DNA of 29,988 nt from positions 1-29,988 of the forward strand of contig CAYZZO010000001.1 in NCBI GenBank assembly GCA_964483075.1, written 5' to 3'. The DNA comes from an uncultured Candidatus Saccharibacteria bacterium (lineage in GTDB: Bacteria; Patescibacteriota; Minisyncoccia; Minisyncoccales; GWA2-38-27). The stretch's first letter is position 1, and each line of letters starts with the position of its first letter. Under the pieces are notes generated by a model. That model ran no database searches. It was not told where the DNA came from and saw nothing but the letters and a program-made list of their open reading frames with translations. Shown in pieces: positions 13,413 through 18,798 of this stretch. Position numbers and translations under genes: made by a program.

Positions 13413-13456
13413 GAAGATAAGATTATTGGTTATTGCGCGTTGAATCTAATTATAAC

Positions 13457-14767
13457 ATGGCAGAGATAAAAAAAATAACCGGCGAAGTTAAAATCCCCGA
13501 GGAAACAGTTAAAGATATCCGCTTAAGCGGCAAAAGTATCTCTGATTTTGGAACAAAAATCAGGTCGTCCTTAGGAGAAAATACGACTAAGGCTTTGGAA
13601 ATTATTTTGGCAGGAGCAATTAATCTTGATTCCTCGGATATTCATTTAGAACCCGAAGAAGAAAAAATAAAATTAAGAATTAGAATCGACGGAGTTCTCC
13701 GAGATGTAACTTTTTTTAGTCCGGAAAAATATCATTCTTTCCTTTCAAGAATAAAGCTTCTCAGCGGACTTAAATTAAATGTAACCAATAGGCCGCAAGA
13801 CGGTCGCTTTTCTATCTTAATTGGCAACACCTCCATTGAAATAAGAGTATCTTCGCTTCCCTCTGAATACGGGGAGACGGTTGTTCTTAGAATACTAAAC
13901 CCAAAAAGCTTAATCAACTTAGAAGGACTTGGACTAAGAGAAGATCTTCTTAAAACCGTTAAAAAAGAAATAAAAAAGCCAAACGGAATGATTATTGTCA
14001 CCGGACCCACCGGATCGGGAAAGACAACAACGCTTTATGCTATTCTGAAAAAAATCAATAGACCGGAAGTTAAAATTATAACTATTGAAGACCCTATCGA
14101 ATATAAACTGGAAGGAATCTCTCAAACCCAGGTTAATCCTAAGAAAGGATATGATTTTGCTAATGGGCTTAGGGCAATAATGCGCCAGGACCCTGATATA
14201 ATTTTGGTGGGAGAAATCAGAGACCTGGAAACAGCTAAAATCGCCCTTCAAGCAGCTCTAACCGGACATTTGGTTTTAAGCACTATACATACAAACGACG
14301 CCGCAGGAACAATAGCTCGGCTCCAAGCCCTGGGAGCAAAAGCAGTTAACATCGCTCCCGCTATAAATATGGCTATTGCCCAAAGACTAGTAAGAAAAGT
14401 CTGTAAAAGATGCGGCAGGCTGGAAACGATTTCAAAAGAAGAACTCAAAAAAATAAAAAAATCCCTAAAAGGTGCTCACCTTAAGGGAATAAAAATTCCG
14501 AAAATAACAGAAAAAACAAAAATTCCGAAAATAAAAGGATGTAAATACTGTAATTTCACCGGCTATAAAGGACGCCAAGCAATTTTTGAAAGTTTTTTAG
14601 TAGACGACGAAATAGAAAATTTCATCTTAAAATCCTCTTCAATCTCTTCTTTAAGAAAATTAGCCGAAAAAAAAGGAATGATCTCAATGCGCCAAGATGG
14701 ATTCCTAAAGGTCATTAAGGGAATTACTACTATGGAAGAGATAGAAAGAGTAACTCCAGAAGAATGA
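13457..14767 (+). CDS. GspE/PilB-family type IV pilus assembly ATPase, short N-terminus
   Basis: SDIHLEP, PQDGRF, Walker A GPTGSGKTTT, TIEDPIEY, Walker B ILVGEIRD, His box GHLVLSTIHTN, tetracysteine Zn site CKRC...CKYC. Likely ATG at 13457 (the track uses TTG at 13433). Confidence 0.92.
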   Translation: MAEIKKITGEVKIPEETVKDIRLSGKSISDFGTKIRSSLGENTTKALEIILAGAINLDSSDIHLEPEEEKIKLRIRIDGVLRDVTFFSPEKYHSFLSRIKLLSGLKLNVTNRPQDGRFSILIGNTSIEIRVSSLPSEYGETVVLRILNPKSLINLEGLGLREDLLKTVKKEIKKPNGMIIVTGPTGSGKTTTLYAILKKINRPEVKIITIEDPIEYKLEGISQTQVNPKKGYDFANGLRAIMRQDPDIILVGEIRDLETAKIALQAALTGHLVLSTIHTNDAAGTIARLQALGAKAVNIAPAINMAIAQRLVRKVCKRCGRLETISKEELKKIKKSLKGAHLKGIKIPKITEKTKIPKIKGCKYCNFTGYKGRQAIFESFLVDDEIENFILKSSSISSLRKLAEKKGMISMRQDGFLKVIKGITTMEEIERVTPEE

Positions 14768-14799
14768 TTACGCATTTTACGCGCCATGGACGTAAAATA

Positions 14800-14945
14800 A
14801 AAGAAGTTCTAGGGCTGGGGGCTAAATAAAACTAACTATACTGTTAAGTTTAGAATTGACGCGAGGTATAGCCTCGTCCACTAAAAGCGAACCAAGCCAC
14901 CCATCAACAGAAAATTCCAAACCCCCAGCCCTAGAACTCTTTTAT
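14800..14945 (-). ncRNA. Candidate structured ncRNA, 6S RNA-like architecture
   Basis: Perfect 17-bp inverted repeat (14805-14821/14922-14938) encloses an AU-rich bubble, an internal stem and the terminal hairpin cgagg-ctata-cctcg. A dedicated minus-strand promoter lies directly upstream. No ORF. Confidence 0.5.
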
Positions 14946-14950
14946 AACAA

Positions 14951-14979
14951 ATTATACATCATTCTTGTTTTAATTTGAA
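14951..14979 (-). promoter_or_regulatory. sigma70-type promoter driving the candidate ncRNA
   Basis: Minus strand TTCAAA-17 nt-TATAAT. The predicted start near 14944 is a few nt before the closing stem. Confidence 0.6.
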
Positions 14980-15037
14980 CATTCTGGTGTCTGTGTCAAG
15001 GAACGACTATCTATTAGTTCCATTATTTTAATACTTT

Positions 15038-16117
15038 ATGAAAAATTTGTCAAGCCCTTCGCCTTCAGACAATGACCGAAGAGAAAATTTACAAAAAGAA
15101 ACAGCTACCGTTACGCCCGAATTAAGTAAAGAAGATAGAGACCTTGATTTAACCCTAAGGCCGAAGAAATGGGATGATTACGTTGGACAAGAAAAAATCA
15201 AAAAAAATATCCAGATAATCATTAAAGCGGCGAAGAAAAGGGGCGAACCAATCGAACACCTTCTTTTTTATGGAAGCCCGGGGCTAGGGAAAACAACATT
15301 GTCTTATCTTGTTGCAAGGGAGATAGGAACAAACATTAAAACAATCACTGGACCCTCGATTGAAAACGTTGGCGACTTAGCTGCCATCTTAACTAATCTC
15401 TCAGAAGGAGACATTTTATTTTGCGATGAAATTCATAGACTAAATAAATTGATTGAAGAATTTTTGTATCCCGCCTTAGAAGATTTTAAACTAAATTTAA
15501 TTTTAGGGAAAGGGCCAATGGCAAGGACGATGGAATTAAAAATCCCTCGTTTTACTCTTATTGGGGCAACAACTCGATTAGCACTGCTATCATCTCCTCT
15601 AAGAAACCGTTTTGGAGCTATATTTCAGCTTCATTTTTACAAAAATGAAGATATCGAAAAAATTATAAAAAAATCAAGCAAGCTATTAAATATAAAGGCG
15701 GAAGAAGAGGCAATTAAACTTATCGCCAAATCTTCCCGCTTTACTCCGCGAGTAGCCAATCGCCTCCTAAAAAGAATAAGAGATTTCGCCCAGGTAAAAG
15801 GAAATGGCATAATCACTAAAAAAATTGCCGAGCAATCATTGAAATTTTTAGAAGTAGACCAGCTCGGGCTTGAGACAGAGGATAGAAAGATTTTAAAAAC
15901 GATCATTGAAAAATTTAAAGGCGGTCCTGTCGGACTCCAAGCCCTTTCTGCCGCTGCTCAGGAAGAAATAGACGCTGTCTTAGACATTTATGAGCCCTAT
16001 CTGATGCAACTTGGATTTATCGAAAGAACTCCACGAGGCAGAATCGCGACTAAAGCAGCCTACAGGCACTTAGGGATAAAGGTTTCTAAGGCAGACCATC
16101 AAAAACGCTTAATCTAA
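15038..16117 (+). CDS. ruvB: Holliday junction branch migration ATPase RuvB
   Basis: LRPKKWDDYVGQ, GSPGLGKTT, DEIHRL, IGATTR, TPRVANRLL, YEPYLMQLGFIERTPRGR. Confidence 0.98.
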   Translation: MKNLSSPSPSDNDRRENLQKETATVTPELSKEDRDLDLTLRPKKWDDYVGQEKIKKNIQIIIKAAKKRGEPIEHLLFYGSPGLGKTTLSYLVAREIGTNIKTITGPSIENVGDLAAILTNLSEGDILFCDEIHRLNKLIEEFLYPALEDFKLNLILGKGPMARTMELKIPRFTLIGATTRLALLSSPLRNRFGAIFQLHFYKNEDIEKIIKKSSKLLNIKAEEEAIKLIAKSSRFTPRVANRLLKRIRDFAQVKGNGIITKKIAEQSLKFLEVDQLGLETEDRKILKTIIEKFKGGPVGLQALSAAAQEEIDAVLDIYEPYLMQLGFIERTPRGRIATKAAYRHLGIKVSKADHQKRLI

Positions 16118-18267: not shown

Positions 18268-18798
18268 ATGACAATCCTTGGCATAGACCCCGGAACAGCG
18301 ACAACCGGTTTCGGTGTTATTGAATTCCCGAAAAATAAAGACAAAAAAATGAAGGCAGTTGATTATGGGTGTATCATAACAGACAAAAACTTGTCTCCGG
18401 GGGAAAGGTTAAAAATAATAAACAACGAACTCAATAAATTGATAAAAAAACATCAGCCAAAGGCCATTGCCGTTGAAAAATTATTTTTTTTTAAAAACCT
18501 AAAAACAGTTATGCCGGTAAGCCAGGCGAAAGGAGTTATACTGCTTACTGCCGCAAAAAAGAAAATCCCCACATACGAATTTACGCCTCTCCAGGTTAAA
18601 ATGGCTGTTGTCGGCTATGGAAGAGCAGAAAAAAAACAAGTTCAAGAAATGATTAAAACGTCGTTTGGATTAGAAGAGAAGCCGAAAGACAAAAACAAAA
18701 GAAAAGATGATGCTACTGATGCCTTGGGAATAGCTCTCTGCTATGCTCTTCAGGTAAGAAGCCAATTTTTTTCCCAAGAAAAAAAATACGGGTTATAA
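18268..18798 (+). CDS. ruvC: Crossover junction endodeoxyribonuclease RuvC
   Basis: ILGIDPG, AVEKLFF, YEFTPLQVK, GYGRAEKKQV, DDATDALGIA. Confidence 0.96.
   Translation: MTILGIDPGTATTGFGVIEFPKNKDKKMKAVDYGCIITDKNLSPGERLKIINNELNKLIKKHQPKAIAVEKLFFFKNLKTVMPVSQAKGVILLTAAKKKIPTYEFTPLQVKMAVVGYGRAEKKQVQEMIKTSFGLEEKPKDKNKRKDDATDALGIALCYALQVRSQFFSQEKKYGL

Follow-up and report, generated by a model that had tools for sequence, protein, structure and literature searches.

The window, as we call the whole 29,988-nt stretch of DNA analyzed here, carries a gene for a PilB/GspE-type ATPase (pilB) and, beyond it on the same strand, ruvB. The interval between the two holds what is almost certainly a genuine RNA gene, read from the minus strand. 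A yebC-ruvC pair lies near the RNA locus, and RuvA is encoded on another contig. A preliminary description of the interval had proposed that the minus strand encodes a stand-alone structured RNA, non-coding and with a promoter of its own, and the fold, the promoter and the covariation reported below all support that proposal.

Table 1 Features of the pilB-ruvB RNA locus and related genes. Positions are those of the window unless a contig is named.
Feature	Position	Strand	Remarks
pilB, PilB/GspE-type ATPase gene	13433..14767	+	Convergent with the RNA gene; Pfam T2SSE, E = 2e-120
Extra 8-bp hairpin, attttacg/cgtaaaat	14774..14798		Between pilB stop codon and RNA 3' end; genome-specific
RNA gene, ~147 nt (about 145-150 nt)	14797..14944	-	From fold, pair map and covariance-model match (14793-14950, 122.7 bits)
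P1, 3' strand (CCC-N'-CAG...)	14800..14821	-	With the following U-run, an intrinsic-terminator-like end
P3, short weak A-U-rich hairpin	14832..14847	-	3' side of the junction; weak covariation
P2, long conserved arm	14850..14920	-	Most widely matched part in the class (model positions about 31-119)
P1, 5' strand of the 22-bp closing helix	14922..14943	-	Top is the conserved CUG-N-GGG
Proximal promoter, TTCAAA-17-TATAAT	14951..14979	-	10/12 consensus matches; usual distance (7 nt) from P1; genome-specific
Consensus promoter, TTGACA-17-TAAAAT	15025..15053	-	Ancestral position; 11/12 matches; ruvB start codon (15038) in spacer
ruvB	15038..16117	+	Divergent from the RNA gene; Pfam RuvB_N, AAA_lid_4, RuvB_C; first codons (MKNLS) overlap the RNA promoter
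ruvC	18274..18660
RuvA homologue	contig C5:9632-10066	-	tblastn E = 2e-9; apart from ruvB

The perfect 17-bp arms of the preliminary description were recovered: AGTTCTAGGGCTGGGGG at 14805-14821 has its exact reverse complement at 14922-14938, and the pair occurs once in the genome. The arm pattern gave two matches in the window where 0.02 were expected by chance, and the element as a whole is single copy in this genome of 511 kb and 74 contigs. The folding energy of the minus strand was -66.7 kcal/mol (z = -8.1 relative to shuffled sequence) and that of the plus strand -52.3 kcal/mol. We infer that the RNA begins 7 nt downstream of the -10 box of the proximal promoter and ends in the U-run that follows the closing helix. 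The extra hairpin reported beyond the 3' end is present in this genome and is absent from the 3' flanks of the homologues.

The fold was derived from an alignment of 15 homologues by MAFFT and RNAalifold, which gave a 47-pair structure, with compensatory changes in 21 pairs and an alifold covariation term of -5.8 kcal/mol. The model is a three-way junction of helices P1, P2 and P3; as P3 is marginal, an asymmetric 3' bulge may stand in place of a true junction. In the closing helix P1 both sides have changed in 18 of the 22 pairs. The lower part covaries freely and at its base consists of A-run/U-run pairs that place a U-run on both strands, and in the upper part (CUG-N-GGG/CCC-N'-CAG) only the N-N' pair covaries. 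On the 5' side, P1 is joined to P2 by a linker (J1/2) of 1-6 nt.

The P2 arm, of about 22 bp plus loops, begins with an A-U-rich helix, GGAAUUUU(UC)/(GA)AAAAUUCU, which contains a G-U pair common to 35 of the 36 homologues. Above it come an internal loop around AG..GG/CC-U-C-G, a heavily covarying 6-bp helix, an invariant UGG...CGA element with a G-G mismatch and finally a 2-bp stem capped by a tetraloop that varies freely. Among the homologues the apical loop reads GAGA, UUCG, UCCG or UAAG or is replaced by an extended stem, the longer stem being the form found in this genus. P3 is predicted as a hairpin of at least 4 bp in 35 of the 36 homologues, but its stability is low (-0.1 to -6 kcal/mol). 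Most genera have UUCC in the P3 loop, this genome being an exception, and in other orders two hairpins occupy the place of P3.

This fold differs inside the closing stem from the one drawn from the single sequence. The two strands previously taken for an asymmetric U-rich bubble, GGAAUUUU and AAAAUUCU, pair with each other and covary, and are the lower P2 helix. Neither the ctgttga/ttaacag stem nor the cgagg/cctcg hairpin belongs to the conserved fold; both are peculiar to this genome. Several known motifs were also considered. A hammerhead-like core (CUG..GAUG../CGAAAC) was discarded, since its GAAAC varies with covariation and Rfam gave no match; a kink-turn in the P2 internal loop was rejected because the order of the motifs does not fit. 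Pairing of the UUCC of the P3 loop with a GGAA in P2, as a switch or pseudoknot, was dropped when no co-variation was seen in the loci where GGAA changes (L039 and L058).

Covariation across homologues, named in the preliminary description as a check, proved strong. In an alignment of 36 homologues (A5), whose fitting to the covariance model somewhat inflates pairing, standard pairs filled 94.4% of the paired-column cells and 33 of the 47 pairs had compensatory, double-sided changes. An independent MAFFT/alifold structure agrees with this model-fitted alignment. None of 500 shuffles reached the observed covariation values, and when partners were slid by 1-3 columns the paired cells fell to 38-60%. 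The lower P2 helix gives examples: columns 43 and 98 hold UA in 21 sequences and CG in 13, columns 37 and 104 hold AU in 33 and GC in 3, and at the level of the class this helix covaries wholesale. The direction of the RNA, for which G-U pairs had been cited from one sequence, is borne out by the 36 homologues, in which minus-strand reading gives 166 G-U cells versus 23 A-C cells. Covariance-model scores were 104-159 bits on the forward strand and 43-47 bits on the reverse strand.

The TTCAAA-17-TATAAT promoter given earlier is indeed present on the minus strand, reading from 14979 to 14951. Among the homologues, a promoter of the form TTGACA-17-TAnnnT with 11-12 of 12 consensus matches stands upstream of the RNA in 35 of 36 loci, and in 30 of those 35 its -10 box ends 7-20 nt before P1. 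This promoter usually overlaps the ruvB start codon, which here falls within the promoter spacer (ATGAAAAATTTGTCAAG is the reverse complement of CTTGACAAATTTTTCAT). In this genome the consensus promoter is 81 nt upstream of P1 owing to an insertion. As the TTCAAA-17-TATAAT sequence sits at the usual distance, both promoters may fire. At the other end of the gene, a U-run of at least four follows P1 in 31 of the 36 homologues. The predicted unit is a stand-alone small RNA gene that runs from a sigma-70-type promoter to an intrinsic terminator composed of the closing helix and its U-run. The insertion itself, about 75 nt, occupies 14945-15024 between the ancestral promoter and the RNA and carries the second, weaker TTCAAA-17-TATAAT promoter; two relatives in the genus (G001 and G002) also have insertions between promoter and RNA.

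Within the family, BLAST found one homologue per genome in many genera. A covariance model built from the 15-homologue alignment (model R1) matched 219 of 301 sampled genomes of the order, nearly always once per genome; a pilB orthologue was present in all 301. When 20 genomes negative with R1 were searched with filters off, 12 gave a weaker match downstream of pilB, at the same site and always convergent, hence the order-wide frequency is an underestimate. A second model (R2), built from 35 diverse members, matched 176 of 401 sampled genomes of the class, about 158 of these lying outside the order, with many of the distant matches covering the P2 arm only. In the phylum's other classes, about 376 genomes were searched with model R1, and none matched. 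Across a class of Patescibacteria, genomes retain a single copy of the predicted RNA in the pilB-ruvB interval.

The gene order around the RNA is strongly conserved. In all 36 order loci inspected pilB abuts the RNA gene tail-to-tail, with about 10 nt at most between its stop codon and P1, and the pilB-RNA-ruvB order was seen also in other orders of the class. On the promoter side, divergent ruvB adjoins the RNA gene in 22 of the 36 loci and is replaced in the other 14. The substitutes encode lamin-tail-domain surface proteins or a ComEA-like protein, and most of them start with MKNLSR or a close variant in the same place. Since most of the substitutes keep the same or nearly the same initial codons at the same position, the predicted promoter and the start codon are conserved as one unit, a clear example of the tight packing of information in these genomes. 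The first codons MKNLS/R appear to be fixed by the overlapping RNA promoter in the window (15025-15053) and at loci L037, L047, L051, L053, L054, L057 and others. Some class members have a gene of about 320 aa, co-directional with the RNA, between the RNA and pilB, and the RNA persists. At four loci from other families of the class (L119, L120, L122 and L125) the inserted gene encodes a membrane-anchored protein of about 315-340 aa. As the RNA is kept when ruvB is replaced or pilB is separated from it, neither neighbor is indispensable to it.

The RNA family is very probably new, matching none of the catalogued families. At gathering score, Rfam 15 matched no family in the window; at E <= 1 it matched none in 19 diverse homologous loci, and a local Rfam search of the RNA region returned plant-miRNA noise only. 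The literature searched gave no description of a pilB-ruvB RNA. Given its absence from Rfam 15 and from that literature, standard annotation leaves the locus as an empty intergenic gap. A new class of non-coding RNA had been the alternative offered in the preliminary description, and it fits the evidence. The reading placed ahead of it there, a minimal 6S RNA, fares worse. The Rfam 6S model (RF00013), proposed as the test, found nothing in the window at gathering score, in positions 14600-15150 or the whole genome at E <= 10, or in the 19 homologous loci at E <= 1. With no covariance-model match and with the defining two-sided central bubble missing, assignment to the 6S family was rejected.

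A signal recognition particle (SRP) RNA was sought as well. The SRP RNA model RF00169 matched none of the 39 genomes of the family, and for that reason a very divergent SRP RNA was considered for this locus; RF00169 matched neither the RNA locus nor the 19 homologous loci. The Ffh M domain (PF02978) was found in 0 of the 39 family genomes and gave no real matches in a phylum sample of 401 Patescibacteria genomes. The SRP54 GTPase domain (PF00448) gave P-loop-level matches only, and tblastn of this genome with an E. coli Ffh query returned nothing. The same SRP search was positive in 13-14 of 14 control genomes, and the only N-runs in this genome are seven gaps of 100 bases. A search of the genome for the SRP domain IV pattern was too loose to inform. 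The SRP system thus appears to be absent from this genome, the 39 family genomes and the 401 phylum genomes. One preprint lists 'Sec-SRP (secDEFGYA and yidC)' with neither ffh nor ftsY, and no statement of SRP loss in Patescibacteria was found in the literature searched.

Other stable RNAs were found in the genome, tmRNA and RNase P RNA both being present. The RNase P RNA (contig C2:28006-28506, minus strand) scored 65 bits against RF00010, the gathering score of which is 100. It spans 501 nt versus 367 model positions and is divergent, with insertions, such that standard thresholds would miss it here. A better 6S or SRP RNA candidate was sought elsewhere by a folding-energy scan of intergenic regions, with Rfam searches of the top regions, and none emerged. 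By Rfam, the regions of lowest energy were rRNA, tRNAs and RNase P RNA, together with a few unclassified GC-rich hairpin clusters. One GC-rich element (0.56, in a genome of 35% GC) at contig C19:4185-4320 is about 135 nt long, a multi-hairpin structure closed by a 20-bp stem; its folding energy is -106 kcal/mol over 241 nt, and it had no Rfam match at E <= 0.01. A GC-rich palindromic unit (GCACGCCGCCGGGGAGCGUGCAGUC...) is present three times on contig C74 (1640-1790), and a tandem repeat of 9 nt (CCCCAGAGA-like) occupies the start of contig C24 (positions 1-135).

What might such an RNA do? We judge the chances to be evenly balanced that it is a trans-acting, protein-binding RNA. It would then be the RNA component of a ribonucleoprotein acting in trans, and the protein would recognize the top of P1, the G-U pair that is invariant, the internal loop GG/CC-U-C and the G-G mismatch of UGG/CGA, while the cap above that mismatch would be left to vary. 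Helices conserved in sequence, an invariant G-U pair and G-G mismatch, and an apical loop free to change favor an RNA recognized by protein. Such features are not expected of an antisense regulator that works by base pairing, the sequence of which would be free to drift. A more specific form of this reading, that the RNA is a subunit of an unrecognized, class-wide ribonucleoprotein of Paceibacteria-type Patescibacteria, we consider possible, though less likely than not.

Cis effects of the position of the gene are almost unavoidable. P1, flanked by A-runs and U-runs, could terminate pilB transcripts that arrive from the other side. The RNA promoter would lie across the start codon of ruvB or of its substitute, and its firing should therefore interfere with read-through into ruvB. 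The fixed location, with pilB adjacent in 36 of 36 loci and the promoter interlocked with the next gene, suggests some cis role. One could go further and take the RNA to be primarily a cis-antisense or insulator module of the pilB-ruvB unit. P1 would then be a bidirectional terminator, the antisense promoter over the ruvB start would block or collide with read-through, and the RNA might pair with the pilB 3'-UTR or with read-through transcripts to give RNase III cleavage, by analogy with GadY acting on gadX. The tail-to-tail abutment of pilB, with its stop codon so close to P1, the recurrence of the same arrangement in other orders of the class, the start codon in the promoter spacer with MKNLSR kept when ruvB is replaced, and the U-runs on both strands at the P1 base are all as such a module would have them. 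However, a cis-encoded antisense RNA is complementary to its target whatever its sequence. Obligate cis pairing would not require the strand-specific conservation observed, and it leaves the strand-specific G-U covariation, the invariant mismatches and the sequence-conserved helices found across the class unexplained. Moreover, the RNA outlasts the loss or displacement of either neighbor; even the convergent pilB, abutting in every order locus, is parted from it by the ~320-aa gene in some class members. We consider this unlikely as the primary function.

The other readings give the RNA a known partner or deny that it is an RNA of its own. As a compact 6S-type RNA it would mimic a promoter, bind the sigma-70 holoenzyme and be freed by product-RNA synthesis. 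This genome has no detectable 6S RNA while its promoters are of the canonical sigma-70 type, and the strong promoter of the RNA predicts abundance. The shape is also suggestive: two helices make a long rod, in which G-C-rich pairs adjoin an irregular middle, and the 3' side bears a small hairpin. A small 3'-side hairpin is shared by the 6S RNAs of some lineages. Yet besides the failed 6S searches of the window, the genome and the 19 homologues, there is no 5' bubble (J1/2 is 1-6 nt, and the strands assigned to the bubble form a helix that covaries), the second and key position of the -10-like UAAACU on the 3' side is variable, and the rod, in which P1 (22 bp) and P2 are present and the third hairpin branches off, totals only about 145-150 nt versus about 180-200 nt for 6S RNA. 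Nothing in the tests run here favors functional analogy to 6S RNA, and we regard the compact 6S reading as distinctly improbable. Very unlikely, in our view, is a branched RNA serving as partner or decoy of the Holliday-junction machinery (RuvA/RuvB/RuvC). The interlocking of its promoter with ruvB, the nearby yebC-ruvC genes and the branched fold would suit that role, but ruvB is not adjacent in 14 of the 36 loci and RuvA is encoded elsewhere in the genome; the RuvA gene on contig C5 also disposed of the idea that the RNA replaces a missing RuvA.

That the locus is instead a DNA-level element (a MITE or a palindromic insertion) or a very divergent SRP RNA seems extremely improbable. The perfect 17-bp inverted arms are what such a DNA element would show, and the preliminary description had allowed for a MITE if the arms recurred at many loci. 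They occur once in the genome, and the element is found once per genome at the orthologous site in hundreds of genomes across the class with strand-specific covariation, so we rejected a MITE. The SRP reading draws on the lack of any SRP RNA in the family. With Ffh and FtsY undetectable, an SRP RNA would be without its protein partner, and the reading fails; the apical loop of the RNA is variable, and the features of domain IV (the GNAR tetraloop and the conserved symmetric and asymmetric loops) are missing.

Patescibacterial genomes, at 0.5-1 Mb, are pared down to the essentials. As genomes so reduced keep this gene once each throughout the class, the RNA likely does something central. If it is indeed the RNA of a class-wide ribonucleoprotein, it would constitute a new class of housekeeping RNA, of the same rank as 6S or Y RNA. 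It might then be a functional analogue of 6S RNA with a different architecture, or a regulator linked to the genes for pilus, DNA uptake and recombination that always surround it. The covariance model and the fold provide a concrete target for cultivable CPR systems or metatranscriptomes.

Among characterized RNAs, 6S RNA (ssrS; RF00013, RF01685) is likewise a stand-alone, probably abundant, housekeeping-type small RNA in which a long closing helix joins the 5' and 3' ends, a second long helix completes a rod, and an irregular region and a small 3'-side hairpin lie between the two. The pilB-ruvB RNA differs in lacking the two-sided central bubble, the adjacent strands of which pair and covary here, and in its length of ~147 nt, its intrinsic-terminator end, its fixed pilB-ruvB position and the absence of a covariance-model match. 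GadY/gadX of E. coli and SR4/bsrG of B. subtilis resemble the locus in arrangement: the RNA lies tail-to-tail with a protein gene, the 3' ends can overlap and the terminator is shared or bidirectional. Those RNAs, however, are short-range, lineage-specific regulators without deep structural conservation, whereas the pilB-ruvB RNA keeps a covarying fold and invariant motifs class-wide and survives separation from pilB. The orphan structured RNAs of the raiA motif, OLE and Bacteroidales-1 type were also defined by covariation together with promoter and terminator signals, are lineage-restricted but widespread within their lineages, had no known function at discovery and are presumed to have a protein partner. 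From these the pilB-ruvB RNA is set apart by its fold and sequence, by its confinement to one class of Patescibacteria, by an unusually rigid synteny and by a promoter that overlaps the start codon of the neighboring gene.
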